Assembly: GCA_964106915.2 (NCBI GenBank)
Contig: OZ066917.1
Source: Podarcis gaigeae
Lineage: Eukaryota
Reading direction: 5' to 3' (one strand)
Length of the DNA: 64,000 bases
This document shows positions 4,863-52,100 of this stretch, one piece after another; position 1 is the first letter of the stretch, and the number at the start of each line of letters is the position of its first letter. Below the pieces are notes generated by a model, which had not been told where the DNA came from, made no database searches, and saw only the letters and a program-made list of their open reading frames with translations. The position numbers and the translations under genes were made by a program.

Positions 4863-6298
4863 CCTGTGGGATCTTAAACTTATTTGCAATACTTGAAGTA
4901 GACTGCAGTAGACATCTGATCTGATCACTATTTTTTGCCATTCCATTGGGCCTTGATGCAGTGAGACTTTCCTCTTCTATTCCCAATCCGCCTCCAATCT
5001 AAAAATAAAGAGAAGTACGGTGAACATGCCAATAATGTTTGTAGTATACGGAACACCAGGAGAGGAATTTTAATGATGAAACTACAAGGGCCTTGCAAAT
5101 GGTTGCAGTCGACTTGTTGCACAAGTAGACAGAGTGAATCATTTTACCACTGAGTCAAGTAAACAATTTTTAGTGAAGTCTCACAACTGGGCTAGCTTGC
5201 ACCTGTTAAGACGGGAAGAAGAGAAGCATGCTGTCTTTTGCCAAATCTGTTCTGAAGGAACATGCTATTTGGCCGGCAGAAGACAGGTCAGCACTGGCTC
5301 TTTCTCCCCAGTGTCACTTAAAATAACGAAAGTTCCTTTCTAAGGGAGGAGGAAACATAACCTGCCACTTTCATTACTTTTATTTGCCAAGCAGCTGTGT
5401 TTACCAAAAAAAAAAAAAAAAAAAAAACCACCCTAAAACAAAACAAAAAAATCCAAACCCCATGTTATGAATTTTAGTTTTGTTTAGAAGAACTTTGAGA
5501 AGAAAACTGGTGTAGAACTTAAGGAAGAACTTAAGGAATCTCAACAGTGTATTCATGTTTGTTTTGTTTCCTCTTATTAATAGCTAGTTTTAATTTATCT
5601 CCCCCCCAAATAATGTGCTACAATTATTTCCTAGCGACTGAAGTAACGGCAGCAAAAAGAGAAGAGCTAATTAAACCCAGATTCTGGCTGATGGATCTAG
5701 CCAACAAGCCACTCATGATTGCAACAGATGTTTCTGCTTCTTGGGCCAAAGGAAACTTTATAAGGTTTTTCCTCCCTTTTGGGGACATATGCCAGAACAG
5801 TCAGGAGATGGGAAGTTTATAATTCTGTACAAAAGAGTACATAATACAAGAGGAACAAGGAAGCTGGTGTGTGTGGGGGGGGCAAATTCTGTTGTAGTTA
5901 TACAGACACAAGTCACTCCACCCTGACTAGGAGTTATTTATACATTTCAGAAAATTAAGAATTGCAGTTAACTTTGCTCACCGACAATTGTAAAGCCAGA
6001 ACTTTACTATTTCATTTTTATTTATTATCTCACTGGTAGGTGAAATAAACGCTAACTCATATCCATAATTTTAATTTAGATTTCATGTAAAATGTTTAGA
6101 GGATTTTTACAATTAAGCAGTATACAAATTCTGTTAAATAAACAAAATAGGTCATCTCTCAGAGAGCTCAGCTAATGCCTAAATATTGAATTGAACTCAT
6201 GTCTCTGAGATTTTAATTTAGGTTTACAATTAATGCCGCAGACAGAGCAATCATATGTATGTCTATTCAGAAGTCCCACTGAGTTGAATGAGACTTAT

Positions 6299-7488
6299 TG
6301 TGGTTCGAGGACCCGACCCCCGCGAAGTAAAATGAAGACACAGGGACACACGATATAAGGTTAATGGGCTAGAAAAGGCCACAACTTTATTGATTACAGC
6401 AATGAAAAGGTATTGGCTTAGGCATTGGATCGCGAAACAAGTGGGTTTATTCACCAGGGGTTCATCACCTGTTGATGCTAATCCAACTATAGGCTCACCC
6501 CTGATGTCACCGAGGGTCATGCCATGGCCTCCCGCCAAGCAGGCTTCGGACAGAATACACGACCGCCAGATTCCTTTAGCAGAATACCCCTAGAGATTGA
6601 AGGCATAGGCGATGGCCACACCTAGCACTTCGACACACCACAACACATTATTCCAATGCCTAACCGCCACCCGAGCTAAAGGCTCGCCGCCAATACCTTC
6701 AAAGCTGCAACCAATCCCAGATGCTTTTGCTGACACTAGCTAACCAAATGTCGTTCCCCAGATCCGATAAGTGGACACCGTCATTCCGGTATAAAGCTTC
6801 GTCGCTGATCCGGATACGGTCATGATAAATGACTCGGCCATACATAAAGTGCACCCAACGGGCTACCGCCCGATTTACGAGTTTCCTGGTTCTTTCAATG
6901 GCCATACAGCTTTGCGCACCGCACCAAACAGTTCATTTCAAGAAGGAGGACCAGAACACCGTTTTTCTGGGACACAAGGCTGCAAATGCATTCAAGTCTC
7001 TTTTTATGCTCCACAACAAGTCCACACTCCTTCTGTTAGCGAGGTGATTCTCCCCCAAATGAATTACAAGGATGTCGGGAGGGCCGAACTTGGCTACTTT
7101 CTCCCACAGCAATGGCATAAGCTCCTCCCAATGCATGCCTCTTCTCGAAAACCAGGAAACTCGAACACCATGTGGAAGGCCAAGATTGTGTGCAAGGCCG
7201 CAGCTCACCGCTCGTATGCGGGCCCAATGAACTATACTGTGGCCGCAAATCCACACGCTTCTCGACTCGCACAGGATGACAAAGAGAAATGAGGCCGGGG
7301 AAAGGCTGGCACTGCAGCATAAAGGTTGCTGGACACGCCCCCCCCATGGCACCTGGTTGGACGGCCACCGGGGGGGGGCGTGAGTGCCAGCCAGGTGAGC
7401 TGGAGGCAGGGGGCAACGCCCCCTGCTAGGAGCAGTGTTCAGGCTCCCGCCCACAACCACTCCCCTCTCTTTCAGGGAGGAGAGTCTT
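6299..7488 (-). mobile_element. Short non-autonomous DIRS/Ngaro-like (tyrosine-recombinase class) retroelement carrying only an SGNH hydrolase ORF
   Basis: CpG-rich block in AT-rich DNA; SGNH ORF; minus-strand AATAAA at about 6386-6391; it splits a small host repeat (CAGAAGTCCCACTGAGTTGAATGAGACTTA | TCCCAGGAGACTGTGCATAGAATT) with no TSD, only T microhomology. Confidence 0.7.
6699..7270 (-). pseudogene. SGNH/GDSL hydrolase ORF of the DIRS/Ngaro-like element, broken by one in-frame TGA (6933-6935)
   Basis: ORFs 6933..7529 and 6699..6905 are in the same frame, joined by K*TVWCGAQSC. Motifs: block I VWICGHSIV, block II RRG, block III IHLGENHL, block V YRNDGVHLS. The TGA is compatible with CGA deamination. 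Confidence 0.85.
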
Positions 7489-8312
7489 TCCCAGGAGACT
7501 GTGCATAGAATTGGAGGCCTGGCTATCACAGTGGAAAGTTAAGGGAAAATGTAAATGTTCATGAAAAAAATGTTCCCTTCTCTGCCAACCCTGAAAAGAC
7601 AAAAGTTGCAATTTTGTGAAAATTCAGTGAAATCGTTTCACTATGAAGACCCAAATAGTTCCTTTAAAAATCTGCTTAATTTCTATACTAAATTACAATG
7701 TCTCCAGTCTTCATAGTTTGCAAAGTACTGAATTCAATGGTCCTACAGGTTAAGAAACAATGATTTTCTCCATGGCTCCATAGCATACCTTTGGAAAAAT
7801 AATAATACATTTTTGCACTAAAAGTATCTGAATAAAACAGAAATGAAGAATAGGAACAAAGTGAAATACTTCAGAGGTGCAAGAAAGTAATAATAGTCCT
7901 ATTAGATAATGAAAGAAGCAACAATAGATGGCTTGTATTGACTTCAAATTGTAAGGAGATTAAAAACAAAAACAGAACAAAAATATAATAGCATTTTATA
8001 TTACTTTAAAACTCTTGCAAAATACCTCAGGTTTATTATTTCAGCAAAAAAACATAGGTGTAACATAGGTTATTTCTATGGATTTCAGTGCAATGTGACC
8101 AGATTCACATCTCCTGGACTAATATGCAGATCAAATATAATAATGCTTTGGATTTTACACTTCTCTGAACTTTATGATATAATTTCTCAGCTCAAAAAAT
8201 TACCAAAATAGATTTGAAAATGCATATTTTAGAATGACATAATTTAGAAATGCATGCATTGACATAAATACATATCTAAATAGGATATTTTATATAAGAT
8301 ACATATTTTAAT

Positions 8313-19608: not shown

Positions 19609-22546
19609 TAGCCTAAATCCCAACGACGTGTAATTTCACTACAAATCTATGCCTTTTACTATGTCATGGATGTACTCTCTGCATTTAGTGGGAGAATATC
19701 TACAAAGTCAACTCATACTTTCTCCAGTCCGCTCTGACTTAACTGAATGTAGAATATCTATACAAATTTAAAAAAACACAACACAAAGCCTATACCAAAT
19801 AGCCAAAGTGAATGGGATTGGCCCTGGCATTTTGAGTGTGTGCTGAACTTCTCCATTTTATTTGAGCACATGAATACACATGTTTAACTTCTACATTTGG
19901 ATAAAGGGATTAGGCAGTGAGTAATGTCTGACAACCACTGTGCGTGGTTTATTTGCTTTAAAACATCTGTTGGATCTGCTGAAGATCAAAATCAATTAAA
20001 AAAATAAAATTAAAAAACAGCATGCTCCAGCAATGCACAATACTAGAAAGCACTTTGCTTAAAGACAAATCTTCCTAAATTTGGGTGGTGGTGGAGGGGC
20101 AGAGGGTGGAATAGAGGAACTAAAGGAAGGCCATAAATTACTCTAAACAGCCCATGCTGTTTGGATGTCTGAAGTGGCAGGATTCCAGTCACTTATAACT
20201 ATTTGCATCACTGATGCCAAGAGAAAAACACAAACGTGAAAAGAAGACAAACAAGGGGAAGAGAACAAGGGGCTAAATCAATACACAGCTGAACTAGTCT
20301 GAAAGGGATTAAAAAGGGAGAGGGAGAGGGAGACGGACACCAGAAAACACAGGAGACTTGAGAGATGTAGGTGGGAGAGGGAAAGGAAGGAACTCTGAGG
20401 AGGAGTAATTGGAAAGTGCTGCTGTGGATGAAGCTCTTGTCTCCAAAAGGCTTTGCCTTAACTTTAAACAAACGTTACATATGCAAAGAATTTGGGTGGC
20501 CCTGGATTTTCCCTTCTCATTTTCTCCTTGAAAGGTGATATGCAGAGCCTGGGTATTTTGAGGGTCTTCACGGGAAATGACTCTGCATAACAGATGGAGA
20601 GGAGCCCCCCCCCTTAAAGGAATCACACTTCTTTCATGATTAGCCGTGTCTCAGCTAGTCTTTGTATGCAAGGGGGATGCGATTCTTTGAACAGTGTTTT
20701 GCATGGCCCCCTCATGGAAAACCCTTACGGGCATTTGGGACTGAAAACATGCGCTTCTTCTCAACTGGCATCCTGCTTTTGACTGGTTTTTATCATTGTG
20801 TTTTGGACATCCCATAACATATTGAAATGCTTTCTGATGACCATTCTCTGATTACATTTTATGCATTATCTTCACAAGCATGATTAAAGTGGACCAGGAA
20901 ATGGAGTAAATATATAGGCTGGGATCAGTGAAGCTACTTTAGGTGTCTAAGGGCTTGGACACATCCAGTGGTATTTTTGAGGATCCCCCTCCACCTTTAA
21001 ATACTTAAAGTTAATATGATTATACCTGCATTCTCGTTGATTGCTTGTAGGGCCTTTAATACAAAGATGACTAGTACCCTGCAAAAGCATATTCTGTGTT
21101 GCACTTTTTCTTACAGTGCCTATGGAACAGTCCTGATTTTTGGGTACCTGTCATTAGTAGTAAATGACTGATCCTATTTTGTTGCTCCTCCTTTTTATAT
21201 ATGGGAGAAATGTTGGATACATTATTAGAATGTTACTGTTGAGTGCACACATAGGTGAACTGGAGTTATTCAGGTGTCATATACTGTAGTTTGAATTTTC
21301 TCTGAAGAGCTCAGATATCTTCCTAAGGAAACTAGGAACTATCCCAAGCCTGGGAGAAAAGCTTCCTATTCCCACCAGATTTCTGCCACCATCAAATTCC
21401 CCTTTGCACCCATGCAACATTTGGAAAGGGAAAACGATTGCATCTTCTCTTTTCTCAAGTTGTCAGGCCTTCCACCATCAATGCCATAAGTGTCCATTGC
21501 TAGAGTGAAGCCTGCAAACAAGAGCTTTAAGTATCTTTGGAGTCAAAACTGAGCAAGAAACAATTGTCAGTGGCAGTTCCCAGGATCCCAAGAAGCAATG
21601 AATGCCTTAAGATTGAGACTTCTAATAGTGTGGATTTTCCTCAGTGGCATCTTTGACCCATTGGAAGCATACATTTGGGAAAGGAAAGCTGAATGCCTTG
21701 TCTGAACTTCTACGGAGGTGCAGAGATGTAAATCCATTCCAAATTCAGTATTCTGAATCTGAATCCCCTCCTGCCCTTACAAGATTCAGAACCATTGCTA
21801 GTTTATTCATCCTTCTGGATTTCTCCAAGTTAAATCTTTCACTGTTGGGCGGATATAACTTGGTTGCAATGTACATGACAAATGAATGCATGCACACATT
21901 ATATCAGCATACTGCTTCCCCTTTTAACAGCATGTGCATATGCAAGTGTTGTTAAATGAGTCTGAATTAACAGCTATTCTGTGATATGTACCAACGTTTC
22001 CACTGTGGTTTGAACCATGGCTAGAAGTTTAAGGGAATGGACAACTTACTGCTTCAGAGAAAGACATTACAGAGTTAATGGATGCAAAGAGTAGCAGATG
22101 GAAAAGAGCCTCTAGCAATGTATAATGGGTGGCACTCAAGCATTGATCCCTGGCATGAAGATAGAGCCGTTCCAAAAGTGTCTCTATTTTTGTCTGTGCA
22201 GCGTTAGAGGGTAGGCATTTTCATGGTGCTATGACCCCAGAAAGCCATTCATCTACCACATCCTGACAAGTGATGAGGAGAGTTTTATCAATTCTTTGAA
22301 GCTTGCCATGTCTATTGGCAAAAGCAAGAATGCTATCCAGACTTTCAACAGACCACACTGTATTGAAGAGCCGTAGAACATTATGCGTTGAAAATATTCA
22401 GAAGGTACAGACTGTTTTACAATTACTAACAAGAAGTTTTTGAGACTATGTCTTTTTTCTTTTAAGTCACTGGATGCTCAATTCCTCCATCAGCAAAACT
22501 AATACATGTACACATGCACAAAGACTAAAAACAGAAGAAATGGTTA

Positions 22547-22788
22547 CAGTGGTACCTCGGGTTACATACGCTTCAGGTTACATACGCTTCAGGTTACAGA
22601 CTCTGCTAACCCAGAAATAGTGCTTCAGGTTAAGAACTTTGCTTCAGGATGAGAACAGAAATCGTGCTCCAGCGGTGTGGCAGCAGCAGGAGGCCCCATT
22701 AGCTAAAGTGGTGCTTCAGGTTAAGAACAGTTTCAGGTTAAGAACGGACCTCCGGAACGAATTAAGTACTTAACCCGAGGTACCACTG
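22547..22788 (+). mobile_element. Tc1/mariner-type MITE, 242 bp
   Basis: TIRs CAGTGGTACCTCGGGTTA/TAACCCGAGGTACCACTG; TA on both flanks; internal GCTTCAGGTTA repeats. Confidence 0.92.
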
Positions 22789-23196
22789 TACTCATTTGTC
22801 CCTTGGATACATTTCACACAAAAAACTGTTGCTTCCTCTACATATGACAGACCATATTTTAAAATATCATTATGCATATTCTGTCCAGGTATAATACTGG
22901 TGCATGCCACCCCAATCTCTGTAGCCTTTTTTCTAGCTTCTAGCTCATATGACTCAAAATCTCAACTCTGGCCTTTGTTTTTCCACTGATCAACAAATTG
23001 AGGGAGGAGAGTCCACCCATTTGCTATCTGGTACAGAGCCACTTCCTTTGTGACTTTAATGTCCCATTCTTAGAAGGCCATTATGTCACCAGGAAGCCAA
23101 TTTGGCTATTCCAGGAATTGAATCTGTGCTGGATCCAGGAATTAGAAAGGGGCTCAGGCATACAACCCACCCCAAACTTATAACAATATTGTTAGA

Positions 23197-23926
23197 CAAA
23201 AAGGTAAAAGTAAAGGTGGCGCTGTGGGTTAAAGCCTCAGCGCCTAGGACTTGCCGATCGAAAGGTCGGCAGTTCGAATCCCTGCGGCGGGGTGCGCTCC
23301 CGCTGCTCAGTCCCAGCGCCTGCCAACCTAGCAGTTCGAAAGCACCTCCGGGTGCAAGTAGATAAATAGGGACCGCTTACCAGCGGGAAGGTAAACGGCG
23401 TTTCCGTGTGCGGCTCTGGCTCGCCAGAGCAGCGATGTCATGCTGGCCACGTGACCCGGAAGTGTCTCCGGACAGCGCTGGCCCCTGGCCTCTTGAGTGA
23501 GATGGGCGCACAACCCCAGAGTCTGTCAAGACTGGCCCGTACGGGCAGGGGTACCTTTACCTTTACCTTAAAGGTAAAGGACCCCTGGATGGTTAAGTCC
23601 AGTCAAACTTGACTATGAGGTGTGGCGCTCATCTTGCTTCAGGCCTAGGGAGTCAGTGCTTGTCCACAGACAGCTTTCCGGGTCATGTAGCCAGCATAAC
23701 TAAATTGCTTCTGGTGCAATGGGACACTGTGACAAGTGCCAGAACGCACAGAAACGGCGCTTACCTTCCCACAGAAGTGGTACCTATTTATCTCATAATC
23801 ATCATTTATCTACTTGCACTGGTTGCTAGGTTGGCAGGAGCTGGGACCGAGCAATGGGAGCTCACCCCTTCTGATTGGCAGGCCTAAGAGACTCAGTGGT
23901 TTAGACCACAGTGCCACCCGCTCCCC
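23197..23926 (-). mobile_element. Sauria-type SINE (outer, older copy) whose tail is interrupted by a second SINE
   Basis: TSD AATATTGTTAGA on both sides (about 23185-23196 and 23927-23938); AAAGGTAAAGG tail; head ...GTGCCACCCGCTCCCC. Confidence 0.85.
23216..23569 (+). mobile_element. Sauria-type SINE (inner copy) inserted in the tail of the outer SINE
   Basis: GTGGCGCTGTGGGTTAAAGCC...GTTCGAATCCC (B box)...GGGGTACCTTTACCTTTACCTT; flanked by AAAG(G)TAAAG. Confidence 0.9.
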
Positions 23927-37454: not shown

Positions 37455-38330
37455 CAACACAGAATCATAGAACTGTAGAGGCCAGGAATCTTAACTAAAA
37501 CATCCATGACAGATGGCCATCCAACCTCTGCTTAAAAACATCCAATGAAGGAGAGTCCGCCACCTCCCAAGGGAGTCTGTTCCACTGTCAAACAGCTCAA
37601 TATCAGAATTTTTAGTCGGAATCTCCTTCCTTGTAGGTTGAAAGCCATTGGTTTCTAGTCCTACCTTTCATAGCAGGAAAAAACATGCTTGCTCCATCTT
37701 CCATGTGACAGCCTTTTAGATATTTGAAGATGGCTATCATATGTCCAAGGGACGTGGGTGGCGCTGTGGGTAAAAGCTCAGTGCCTAGGGCTTGCCGATC
37801 GCATGGTCGGCGGTTCGAATCCCCACGGTGGGGTGAGCTCCTGTCATTCGGTCCCAGCTCCTGCCCACCTAGCAGTTCAAAAGCACCCCCAAGTGCAAGT
37901 AGATAAATAGGTACCGCTTTATAGCGGGAAGGTAAACGGCATTTCCGTGTGCTGTGCTGGTGCTGGCTTGCCAGAGCAGCTTCGTCCCGCTGGCCACGTG
38001 ACCCGGAAGTGTCTTCGGACCGCGCTGACTCCCGGCCTCTTACCTTTACCTTTTTATCATATCTCCTCTCATTCTCCTCTTATCCAGGGTAAACACACCT
38101 AACTCCTTCAATCATTCTTTATAAGGCTTTGTTTCCAGAGAGTTGATTATCTTGCTCGCCCTCCTCTGCACATGTTCCAGCTCATCACTATCCTTCTTGA
38201 ATTGTGGTGTCCAGAATGGGACACAGTATTCCAGATGTGGACTGACCAAGGCATAATATATTTGTACTTTACTTCCCTTGAGTGCGACAGTATACTTCTG
38301 TTGATGCAGCCTAGAATAGCATTAGATTTG
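37455..38330 (-). mobile_element. CR1 LINE fragment (ORF2 C-terminus and 3' tail), interrupted by a SINE
   Basis: Minus-strand SKSNAILGCINRSILSHSREV is a CR1 ORF2 signature; AGAATCATAGAA tail at about 37461. Confidence 0.85.
37747..38054 (+). mobile_element. Sauria-type SINE with a 3' internal deletion, nested in CR1
   Basis: GGGACGTGGGTGGCGCTG head; TACCTTTACCTTT tail; TSD TATCATAT(G/C)TCC. Confidence 0.9.
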
Positions 38331-47840: not shown

Positions 47841-48196
47841 GGGACGCGGGTGGCGCTGTGGTCTAAACCACTGAGAGACTAGGGCTTGCTGATCAAGAGG
47901 GTCGGTGGTTCAAATCCCCATGACGGAGTGAGCTCCCGTTGTTCAGTCCCAGCTCCTGCCCACCTAGCAGTTTGAAATCACATCAAAGTGCAAGTAGATA
48001 AATAGGTACCGCTCTGGTGAGAAGGTAAACGGTGTTTCCGTGCACTGCTCTGGTTCGCCAGAAGTGGATTAGTCATGCTGGCCGCATGACCCGGAAAAAC
48101 TGCGGACAAACGCTGCCTCCCTCGGCCAATAAAGCGAGATGAGTGCCGCAACCCCAGAGTCATTTGCAACTGTAAGGGATCCTATACCTTTTTTTT
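47841..48196 (+). mobile_element. Full-length Sauria-type SINE
   Basis: 14-bp TSD TACAAAACCCTATA at 47827-47840 and 48197-48210; canonical head. Confidence 0.92.
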
Positions 48197-48533
48197 TACA
48201 AAACCCTATATGCAGTGTTTCACCTGACTTTATGTTCCATTGGCATATGAACTGTTCCTTTTTAAAAAGCACTTCCCTCTCTCTAAAAGACCTGGGACTC
48301 TGTGGAGCACAAATAACCAAGAGGACAAATCAGCCACATCCCACCCTGTGTCTTCACGATATTGCATTTTATGATTCTAGATCCCAAGCAACATCCCAGT
48401 ATTTGTGTAGAAGAAACCCAAACTCATTTATGTTGGCTAATACATTTCTGCAAATGAAAAATAGCAAGTAAGAAGTTTTAAGCCATCTCCCACCACCTGC
48501 ACAGAAATAATGGGAAAGCCATATTCAGAAGAA

Positions 48534-48775
48534 CAGTGGTACCTCGGGTTAAGTACTTAATTCTTTCAGGAGGTCTGTTCTTAACTTGAAACTGTTCTTA
48601 ACCTGATGCACTACTTTAGCTAATGGGGCATCCTGCTGCTGCCACGCCACCTGAGCCCGATTTCTGTTCTCATCCTGAAGCAAAGTTCTTAACCTGAAGC
48701 ACTATTTCTGGGTTAGCAGAGTGTGTAACCTGAAGCGTATGTAACCTGAAGCGTATGTAACCCGAGGTACCACTG
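48534..48775 (-). mobile_element. Tc1/mariner-type MITE, inverted copy of the 22547 family
   Basis: Same 242-bp length and TIRs; flanked by AA on both sides. Confidence 0.9.
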
Positions 48776-48830
48776 AAATTGTAATAGATTTGGTTAACAA
48801 CTGAGCAGCTTTACATGTACTTTAACCATA

Positions 48831-49189
48831 AAGGTAAAGGTACCCCTGCCCGTACGGGCCAGTCGTGTCCGACTCTAGGGTTGTGCGCCCATCTCACTTA
48901 AGAGGCCGGGGGCCAGCGCTGTCCGGAGACACTTCCGGGTCACGTGGCCAGTGTGAGGAAGCTGCTCTGGCGAGCCGGCACCAGCGCAGCACACGGAAGC
49001 ACCGTTTACCTTCCCGCTGGAGCAGTACCTATTTATCTACTTGCACTTAGGGGTGCTTCCGAACTGCTAGGTGGGCAGGAGCTGGGACCGAAAGACAGGA
49101 GCTCACCCCGCTGCAGGGATTCGAACCACGACCATGCGATTGGCAAGCCCTAGGCGCTGAGGTTTTACCCACAGCGCCACTCGCGTCCC
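48831..49189 (-). mobile_element. Full-length Sauria-type SINE
   Basis: 13-bp TSD TACTTTAACCATA at 48818-48830 and 49190-49202; AAGGTAAAGG tail. Confidence 0.92.
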
Positions 49190-52100
49190 TACTTTAACCA
49201 TAGCCATCCATAAATAACCAAATTAATGTAAATCCTAATGTTCAACTTAAAAGCGTTGTGTACTGAATCTCAACAACCTTTCTAGATGGGCAGTTCTTAC
49301 TGATTTGTCATAGGAAATCCAGATGTCTCTCCTCAAAGCAGTGTGTCTGCTCTAAGGATGTTTCCTTCTTCCCCATCATGCCAGCAGAACATTATTTTGC
49401 TCCTAGGATAATGCAGTGTATGCCACAGCTAGTGCATTCATTGTGGGTTGTATCCAAAGCAGTGAGGTGTGAACATTCTTTCAGCGCAATGATTTCTGCA
49501 GTGGGATGTTTTCCTTTTCTCCTCCCCGTGTGCACCCCTCAATCTGTCCTAGGATTTCCTCCAACCCCGGGAAGCAGATTTGGGGAGGGTGTGGCATGCA
49601 CATTACCATTACATCACCCATCTTTCTGTGTCAGCCAAAACCATTTCTCTTCAGCCTGGAACTCAGTTAGTTTTGCCACGGGCTGGTGACAATAAGTGTG
49701 TGGTAACACAGACAGGCTTTTTCGTGGGTGGCACCAGTGTTGTGGAACGCTCTCTATTGGACTATAAGAGGTCTCATTGGTACTGGGATTTCACTAGCTC
49801 TTGTTTAGACCAGCTTTCCCCTGATCTCCTGACCTGGACCTCCTGTTTTAATGGCTATTTTAACTGCTTTAATAGTACCATTTTAATTGACTTTTTATTG
49901 CACATTTTTATTGTGGATGTTTATTTTAATGTTTGATGGAACTATTTTATTAAGCATTTTAATCATCTTTGTTTACACCTGTAACCTGCTTGGAAGCCAC
50001 TTGGGAAACTGAGTGGTATGGAAATATAATAACAATAGTACATGGCAGCAGAGAGGAAGATTTTATTGGATACCTACGGTTGCTACCCACAATACACATT
50101 GCAGACTTATCCAATGCATCCAGAAGGATCTACTTGGGGTGGGGGGAAATGATGGGTTCTTTAGTGGTTGTCCTACCCTTGTACCACTCAGTCTGAAGTG
50201 ACTTCAAGACTATTCACCTGCAGGACCAGAATTCCAAACCCATACCAAAGAACCAAACCTTGCAATCACTTCTGAACTATTATCTGCTTACCCAACACAG
50301 TTAGGATCTGAATTGCATCACCTGCAAGCAATGCCCTACCTCTCTTTTCACAGGTCAAACAAATCATCAAGATTCCATAGCCTCTATGTGTTCCCTTGCT
50401 AATGTAACAATATATATAGCAGTGAGGGCTGCTGACAGCCCCTGGTTTTGGCAGAAGTTCCAGTCAGGTTCCAAAAATGCTGAGCCAAGTGCTTATGATC
50501 CCATCTTTCCGCTTTCGCTGCTCATTTTCATGCTGAAACCCTCAAGCACACTTAGGTCTGTATCTGTTGACTTACTGTCAACTGGAGCTGCAGCATTATT
50601 TGGGCAGGGGCTTTCTCACAAAGCTACCCAACAGACCCAAATTTGAAAAAGCTTTTTTTTTTTCAGGTGTGGATGAAGACATGACCCTTCATCTCCACCT
50701 CCCACTGTTAGTTATATAGTCTAACCTTTTAGCCACTTTTTCCATGACCATGGAATGTGTACCTTGGGAAAGCAAATTCCAGGAGGGAGTATGCTGAAGA
50801 ACGTTCCTCTATCACCCTCGTTGCTTCACCCACTGATTTACAAGCTACTGATTTACAAGCTGTGAATGAATAGTAGCCTTCAACAACAGGAAGCTTGGTC
50901 ATTGAGAAACCTGATCTCTTCACATGGAGCCAGGAGACGAGCCCTGGTGCCTACAGGAAAATTCACTCCAGGAATCCCAGTAATCAGAGCTGTTAACCAG
51001 AAGGAAATGTCTTCAGTGCGCTTACATGGCGCTTAATCAGCTACTGACAGAGCACCTTTGATCAATGGGTTTTCAAAACGAGGTTAACTGCAGTTTACAA
51101 TATGTCCACATACATTTCACAGTCAATCCCAAATGTACACATTCAGAGAAATTATTCAGTCATGGATCTTTCCACTAGTTCCCCATTGATTTGCTGGTAT
51201 CTTAGAAAACTGACTGAAAGAGATAGCTATTCACATATGTTGGAGTACTCCCAATGGCTGCAATGGTACTGCACTTGGCAATTGGATCCCACTCACAGAA
51301 ATTAGTGATGGAGCTCTATATTTATATCCAGGAGAAGGAAATGTGTTAAAAATAATAATATTAATCCCTGACCTTATCTATTTAGAAAACGCTACTGGTA
51401 ATAAGTAAACAGCACCTACAAAGATTTGTTTTCCAAGTTGATTGTGTACAGATTCATATCACCAAGCCTGAGTTTGAAGATTTCTGCTGCACATATTACT
51501 GCCACTAATATTTTGATTTTAACAGTACCAATAGAAATCAAAACTAACCCAGACTATGTAAACTGATCTTAGGTCCCACTGAAATCAAGTTAGACATTAT
51601 TTAACACCTTACTTCCCAAAAGCTGAGTTGGTACAGTTTACCATAAAGGAGCCAAGAAGGGGCAAGGCAGAATGCAGAAGTTGTCACAGTACAAACATAA
51701 CGGCAGGAGTACTGGATTGGCCTCCATGGATTGTTTGCACTGCGCCAACCTTCCTCCATGAAACATATTTTCTGTGTAATATCTTTTGTCATTTGTCTCT
51801 AAGGTTGGCCATGCTGGGTCACCTGGACAAGTTCTTCCCTCAAGGAAAGTAAGGGAGTATATAGAAGGTGAAGTTTTGTATAGGCTGTCAAAGAAAGAAT
51901 TGATGCCTACGCACCTGGTGGTACAATAAAGCATGATGTTAACATGCGACTTGCTTTTCACAATGTCCAGTGATAAACCCTAAGACTGGGCTTCAGACAC
52001 GACCCTGCAAAAACACATGTTGCCTCTGCCCCACAGCCCTGGACCCTTATGAGACTTAGAAGTATTGCCTCTAACTAATGGCTGAATAGAGAATTAATGT

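Follow-up and report, generated by a model that had tools for sequence, protein, structure and literature searches.

The small folded junction that lies directly behind the hydrolase gene of a retrotransposon piece in the lizard Podarcis gaigeae is, on the evidence of its sequence and position, likely to be a cis-acting replication signal of Ngaro elements, which would fix the left edge of their split direct repeat B. A short motif within it, UGGC(G/A)G in the RNA sense, probably marks the place where a copying enzyme starts or stops. The first-pass annotation of our window (64,000 nucleotides of contig OZ066917.1, assembly GCA_964106915.2) had attributed the surrounding domain to a cis-acting RNA for packaging, priming of reverse transcription, circularisation or export; a conserved cis-element is indeed present, and among these roles the coincidence of the motif with the B boundary favours priming or circularisation, whereas packaging and export gain no support.

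The junction belongs to an insertion of 1,190 bp (positions 6298-7487, minus strand), recognised as such and as having no counterpart in two related species because contigs from runs X1 and X14 join 6297 directly to 7488, at single-copy depth. This joint fits with two letters at either side, namely the crossover core TT at 6298-6299 (assigned to neither strand), whose letters recur at 7488-7489; the joint and the end sequences show no longer target-site duplication, and insertion via a short core without real target-site duplication is a trait of Ngaro-like elements. Judged by its sequence, the insertion derives from a lacertid Ngaro-like tyrosine-recombinase retrotransposon carrying an SGNH hydrolase, of which it is a non-autonomous piece; it consists of an A-like end, the hydrolase, the 3' motif and a B-like end. 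No match to gag, reverse transcriptase/RNase H or tyrosine recombinase was found in the window, all of which are present in relatives, and it is because these reading frames are absent that the copy is taken for a non-autonomous derivative. The 6298-7487 copy has neither internal direct repeats nor direct or inverted terminal repeats, whereas the split direct repeats A1...B1 A2 B2 are present in invertebrate-type relatives; such a unit may have originated from an A2-spacer-B2 unit, or else by a deletion combined with recombination between B1 and B2. The copy in the window is an ordinary dead insertion.

Both ends of the insertion are far commoner in lizard contigs than most of the hydrolase. 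In run X1 the depth over the high-copy A-like terminal segment (7273-7487, minus strand, with an uncertain inner edge at about 7270-7380) is 150,000-660,000, against 6,000-95,000 over the hydrolase, and contig record 7 departs from the window sequence at 7273. The highest-copy part of the unit is the putative B repeat (6298-6665, minus strand), delimited by the depth profile and by comparison with relatives. A head-to-tail B|A junction (7488/6300) occurs in two low-depth contigs of run X1 (8.1 and 2.7, against 65.7 for single copy), which could be extrachromosomal circles or errors. Elsewhere in the window, dispersed repeats of 100-250 bp and 83-94% identity (22544-23576, 37748-38042 and 47900-49190) are probably SINE or LINE pieces.

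The SGNH hydrolase reading frame, of the kind that Ngaro-like elements place after the recombinase, occupies 6699-7268 on the minus strand; its final stop is the TGA at 6701-6699 and an internal stop lies at 6935-6933. It is 82% identical to a Podarcis muralis protein and gives a profile match over 7268-6702 (E 2e-73), the Pfam domain PF13472 being weak in the window frame and above the cut-off in P0003. A hydrolase after the recombinase is the order described for Ngaro-like elements in the available part of PMC9210276, and the lacertid gene models P0002, P0004, P0005 and P0015 fuse recombinase sequence to the same hydrolase. In the gene models P0018 and P0022-P0024 a basic Gag-like stretch is spliced to the hydrolase, which is preceded in the window by a pyrimidine tract at 7300-7270; together these suggest that the hydrolase may be expressed by splicing. 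The same domain also ends long cold-shock-domain proteins (L053 and L054; P0063, P0072, P0093, P0112, P0123 and P0127), apparently encoded by a host gene, L053 and L054 having neither motif nor recombinase. In L111 a hydrolase-like frame (7451-8005) lies upstream of gag and not downstream of the recombinase.

Between the last base of the hydrolase stop and a point 15 nt before an AATAAA (6391-6386, minus strand; a candidate poly(A) signal), the minus strand holds the domain of about 290 nt that the first-pass annotation had placed there, and its description of the helices proved accurate. The closing stem P1 pairs 6689-6699, which includes the start of the first UGGCGG (6692-6687), with its exact reverse complement at 6407-6417; helix P2 pairs 6652-6663, equally exactly, with 6418-6429; the small hairpin Pa (6672-6686) has five exact pairs (6672-6676 with 6682-6686); and the inner 10-bp helix within 6452-6506 (6506-6497 with 6461-6452) has one mismatch, a G-U in the minus-strand RNA. 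The four copies of CCGCCA (UGGCGG in the RNA) start at 6532, 6563, 6664 and 6687 as had been claimed, and the remaining 63.7 kb of the same strand contain just two more; none of 5000 shuffles had CCGCCA four times, and 36 of 2000 had any hexamer four times. The minus strand of 6380-6710 folds at -125.2 kcal/mol (z -3.32; one of 100 shuffles as good) into a minimum free energy structure that contains all four helices, with pair probabilities of 0.96-0.97 for the three long ones and 0.55 for the small hairpin, while a predicted extension helix (6715-6704 with 6400-6389) takes in the first three bases of the AATAAA. Two perfect helices of at least 11 bp were found in none of 5000 shuffles (30 had one) and in none of 218 genomic tiles of 293 nt.

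The same annotation had found no canonical hammerhead core. We likewise saw no CUGANGA on either strand of the element, and a search of Rfam with the window domain and three relatives gave nothing near the gathering score, which together rule out a hammerhead or a curated ribozyme. A PDB sequence search returned no match and scans of viral contigs returned nothing; an exact pattern taken from the paired 3' arms had 48 prokaryotic matches, all due to chance by BLAST. Upstream of the hydrolase, at 7304-7392 on the minus strand, this layout is repeated in another three-way junction, made of a 10-bp helix, a 12-bp helix and a small hairpin (z -4.6, none of 200 shuffles as good, pair probabilities 0.92-0.98). 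The loop CCUUUA is common to the small hairpins of both junctions, a match that a frequent variant at 7326 brings to eight bases; a run of nine C sequestered in the upstream junction may be the C-rich tract which, as detailed below, stands behind A.

A metagenome scan yielded 19 host-derived loci whose proteins are 29-38% identical to the hydrolase; the recombinase lies directly upstream in 14 of them, and L068 shows the order gag-RT-YR-SGNH. (G001, the bin behind L068, is a bacterial bin with dozens of animal retrotransposon contigs and 80 reverse transcriptase matches, that is, host contamination.) Several of these relatives have, after the hydrolase stop, the same succession of closing stem, G-rich linker, hairpin and UGGC(G/A)G. 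The stem sequences are wholly different between families and the pairing is retained: the hairpin equivalent to Pa has a stem of 5-8 bp or longer with another sequence, the equivalents of P1 are likewise replaced, and the window and its distant relatives have in common only the UGGCGG after the hairpin and the G-rich stretch before it. As compared across these tails, deep conservation is confined to the small junction (6699-6664 together with 6417-6407) and does not extend to the 290-nt domain, which stands as a feature of the window; similarly, all four UGGCGG are found in the domain, but only the one after the hairpin (6664-6669, minus strand), at the putative left boundary of repeat B near 6665, is common to distant relatives.

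A strict descriptor of this layout matched the window, L049, L064 and L068 among 21 tails, with no full match in 390 kb of background, and when applied unchanged to seven new hydrolase tails of G001 it matched four, one of them of the L064 family; the other three have the same layout by eye, with longer or bulged hairpins. A relaxed descriptor matched the window and 10 of 25 other tails (nine families), against two matches in 124 kb of background (these descriptors, and the boundary offset window used below, were set after the first cases had been seen); among the 15 tails missed, two belong to the host gene and six are under 180 nt. RNAalifold gave no consensus structure on a MAFFT alignment because the helices are out of register, and compensatory change among diverged copies is seen instead in helices that are replaced yet kept, a claim of covariation drawn from the descriptor matches. 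Among read-through proteins that extend at least 45 residues beyond the catalytic motif, 8 of 13 tails include the translation of GTGGCGG, compared with 6-10% of the control windows, and back-translation of such tails in search of hairpins went beyond the null in one of eight; we infer a vertebrate range of the motif.

Since the closing arm comes 252 nt after the motif in the window and 6-19 nt after it in most relatives, the 12-bp P2 (whose 5' arm, at 6652-6663, begins this part) and its 220-nt interior are read as an insert of the lizard lineage, absent in invertebrate-type relatives. It encloses the third and fourth UGGCGG (6563-6568 and 6532-6537, minus strand), the third of which has no counterpart shown in distant relatives. 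In the tails of L074/L087, L075/L090, L076/L088 and L077/L089 a further long-range helix of 9-15 bp has its first arm right behind the motif and its second some 400 nt farther downstream; it has changes on both sides between L087 and L088, and is a possible counterpart of lizard P2.

The lizard paralogues were viewed as read and contig summaries, a full-length lizard element not being among them. Sense-strand pairing is kept by all eight listed frequent variants at predicted paired sites (from 40 of 275 variant rows), by G-C/G-U or A-U/G-U exchanges; by chance, about half of such variants would be expected to keep it. Two reads keep P2 with its interior replaced by 33 nt; in loose-end consensuses, altered outer pairs of P1 and matching changes of P2 occur on separate molecules and are only suggestive of compensation. 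A common lizard variant on the 3' side of the inner helix is complementary over about nine further bases (loose-end consensus at 6468 and 6447, by eye). In RNA run X24 one read direction outnumbers the other about 10:1 over 6455-6658, as sense RNA would do in a stranded library, if this is one, and the read ends of two RNA runs show no pile-up (start, end, poly(A) or cleavage), a weak test of self-cleavage. Two observations fit, indirectly, a start of B at the second UGGCGG, namely a step in depth across 6659-6709 and the loose ends that two RNA runs show at 6665; the loose letters at 6665 retain a P1-like arm, and a sister family without the hairpin may explain them too. Over 6376-6428, about 300 opposite-direction reads of X24 hold only this 50-nt piece between unrelated flanks, pointing to one transcribed locus with a fragment around the AATAAA.

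The meaning that we propose for the junction derives from its position relative to the long repeats. In four near-complete elements with both copies of B (L086, L087, L088 and L061), the point from which B1 and B2 are identical falls within the motif; 20 further contigs were fetched, and among the 22 examined seven had resolvable B pairs, some of these without a 3' hydrolase. Across the resulting 11 elements, nine or ten of which come from the single bin G001 and whose assemblies probably collapse many repeat copies, the offset of TGGC from the first identical base is -6 to 0 in eight (chance per site 0.049; it is missing in L114, L117 and L123) and TGG lies within -8 to +2 of the B start in all 11 (chance per site 0.187). 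For the seven elements fetched after the rule had been noted, the corresponding figures are four and seven. The fold appears looser at these seven later boundary sites, only one of which is matched by the relaxed descriptor. L061 and L104, with repeats 85-89% identical, obey the boundary rule. The edge position is common to families with unrelated repeats, and therefore the edge is probably reset during replication. A trait of polypurine tracts is also found in the relatives, in that the motif stands immediately at the 5' edge of the long repeat; set against the 10 or so consecutive purines, or more, of such a tract, the motif plus A-run is purine-rich in L086-L088 but C-interrupted, and not purine-rich in the window or in L108-L111.

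The other repeat has a landmark of its own. After A2, 8-9 C within 12 nt are found in nine of nine elements, against 0-2 after A1; in element-sense numbering these tracts start at 2608 in L086, 5570 in L087 and 6186 in L088, the remaining ones being those of L108, L111, L114, L117, L121 and L123. Five of the nine tracts have a pattern of four C3 runs that is its sole match in each contig, and the complement of the tract could form a G-quadruplex in at least five elements. The spacer that follows, between A2 and B2, is 27-1,433 bp long, unrelated and non-coding in L086, L087, L088, L108, L111, L114, L117 and L123, and may be captured host DNA; one such spacer seems to contain a small inverted-repeat element. 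The idea that the motif pairs with the C-rich tract was discarded, as the pairing is no better with the tract of its own element than with those of others (permutation P 0.91).

On this geometry B1 plus A2 would act like an LTR. The minus strand would be made first and plus-strand DNA would then begin at the motif, a start to which the repeat geometry is our sole guide and to which we allow somewhat less than an even chance; its primer could be a G-rich RNA remnant, or the folded site behaving as a polypurine tract. The plus strand would run through B1-A2 and stall at the C-rich tract, the complement of which is able to fold into a G-quadruplex, then transfer to the end of the minus strand, with completion and circle closure to follow, and integration by the recombinase at the B|A junction would produce A1-ORFs-B1-A2-spacer-B2. 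The strand that folds at the motif may be RNA or single-stranded cDNA; a folded RNA sits awkwardly with a plain polypurine-tract model, since RNA hybridised to cDNA is not expected to be folded. The same geometry would result if the minus strand stopped, started or transferred at the motif, a course that we consider unlikely. The lizard domain of 290 nt would consist of the replication signal plus a structured insert of 250 nt.

A broader proposition, to our mind somewhat unlikely as a whole, is that Ngaro split repeats are built without a tRNA by two folded signals, a hairpin-junction primer of the plus strand at the left edge of B and a G-quadruplex of the minus-strand cDNA as a stop at the right edge of A. 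If this were true, the split repeats would amount to a two-LTR circle in permuted form that brings its own primer and terminator, and the lizard domain would be the vertebrate form of the primer signal.

Other functions could be envisaged for a fold at this place. P1 could serve as a switch for poly(A) read-through, masking a nearby poly(A) signal at B1 so that genomic RNA continues to B2; P1 would close only at B1, because its 5' arm lies upstream of the B boundary. This would suit the AATAAA 15 nt past P1 in the window, three bases of which are covered by the predicted extension, and the AATAAA or ATTAAA that L086, L068 and L088 have about 17-110 nt downstream of the start of B. However, L087 has no such signal near B1, P1 excludes the signal in relatives, the RNA ends in two RNA runs do not pile up, and neither the invariant UGGC nor a boundary fixed within 6 nt is explained, so that we regard the switch as improbable. 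No better prospects can be given to a site of packaging or RNP assembly, where a Gag zinc finger would bind the unpaired guanosines of the junction and the repeat edge would follow from proteins sitting there. Retroviral nucleocapsid binds exposed G, most of the G-rich loop is left unpaired both in the window and in several relatives, the lizard domain has four copies of the motif, and the Gag-like frame of L068 ends, by eye, in a Cys/His finger-like stretch; yet a packaging site need not fall on a repeat edge, as happens in 8 of 11 elements, and the identity break falls inside the motif itself.

The four GG doublets that flank the hairpin in L049, L065 and L068, and that can be found in the window, raise the alternative of a two-tier G-quadruplex joined to duplexes as the motif itself. 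This is very improbable, for L064/L086 (UGGCAAG) and L087 (UGGCAG) have no fourth doublet and still retain both helices and the boundary. Read-through, Gag binding and the quadruplex each explain less of the boundary pattern than a replication signal at the left edge of B. It is hardly credible that a repeat rich in G+U folds here by chance, or that the domain is a ribozyme or DIRS complementary region of a known kind: the G-rich sense strand does favour G-U pairs and the descriptors are partly post hoc, but the shuffle and background controls speak against chance, and inverted terminal repeats, a hammerhead core and an Rfam match are all absent. The internal complementary region or terminal repeat arrangement of DIRS, which the first-pass annotation had weighed as a full explanation of the pairing, is excluded, the element being Ngaro-like with direct repeats in relatives. 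In the available part of PMC7192593 the complementary region of DIRS pairs with inverted termini; the window element has no inverted termini, and no perfect pairing of 8 bp between its termini or from a terminus to an internal copy, which rules out such a region.

The replication signal that we propose bears on two questions at once, the priming of DNA synthesis and the regeneration of the odd terminal repeats in tyrosine-recombinase retrotransposons. A motif that is conserved between lizards and very distant animals and sits on the repeat edge shows which nucleotides to mutate and where a cDNA end is to be expected; it also offers annotators a landmark for locating the edges of B and A, and would add an RNA family to the present content of Rfam.

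The closest known systems are the Ngaro-like tyrosine-recombinase retrotransposons with an SGNH hydrolase as ORF4, for instance DIRS-53_XT of Xenopus (PMC9210276, available part). Our elements agree with them in the hydrolase after the recombinase, the gag-RT-YR-SGNH order of L068, the direct-repeat ends of the relatives and the short crossover core, while the window copy differs in having no gag, reverse transcriptase, recombinase or repeated ends. Solo AB repeats of Ngaro (PMC8547959) and SIRE of VIPER (PMC6681497), as far as the accessible portions of these texts describe them, are similarly short, high-copy units that run from an A end to a B end, whereas in the window unit A and B are separated by the hydrolase frame and the motif's upstream half. 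The published texts on Ngaro-like elements, in the portions covered, describe the repeats and mention neither a motif or fold at their edge nor, between A2 and B2, a spacer of variable length that includes a C-rich tract; this tract and the motif are likewise undescribed in the covered main text of PMC9210276, PMC7192593, PMC8547959, PMC6681497, PMC13465315 and PMC3783388. The junction is thus a real and apparently undescribed conserved cis-element of a known retrotransposon group, the founding Ngaro papers lying outside the literature covered and a prior notice being possible.

The polypurine tract of LTR retroelements, which gives rise to the plus-strand strong stop, is a G-rich tract whose 3' end defines the first base of the long repeat. 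The Ngaro motif is likewise G-rich with its 3' end at the first base of the long repeat, but it is short, is not free of C and U, and forms part of a conserved hairpin junction. At the other repeat edge, the C-rich tract of Ngaro lies downstream of the 3' repeat, whereas the tRNA site of LTR elements lies behind the 5' repeat. The epsilon signal of hepadnaviruses is a stem-loop with a conserved unpaired stretch tied to the start of DNA synthesis. The Ngaro junction shares with epsilon and with the 3' hairpin of DIRS-1 the stem-loop with a conserved unpaired stretch, and one to four bases of its motif are common to the downstream copy of the repeat. The DIRS-1 hairpin, of 14 nt and at the element's end, has been suggested as a primer, the cDNA primer of the DIRS order, DIRS-1 included, being stated as unknown in the same source (PMC7192593, available part). 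By analogy, the signal at the left edge of B may resemble a polypurine tract or an epsilon-type signal in its working.
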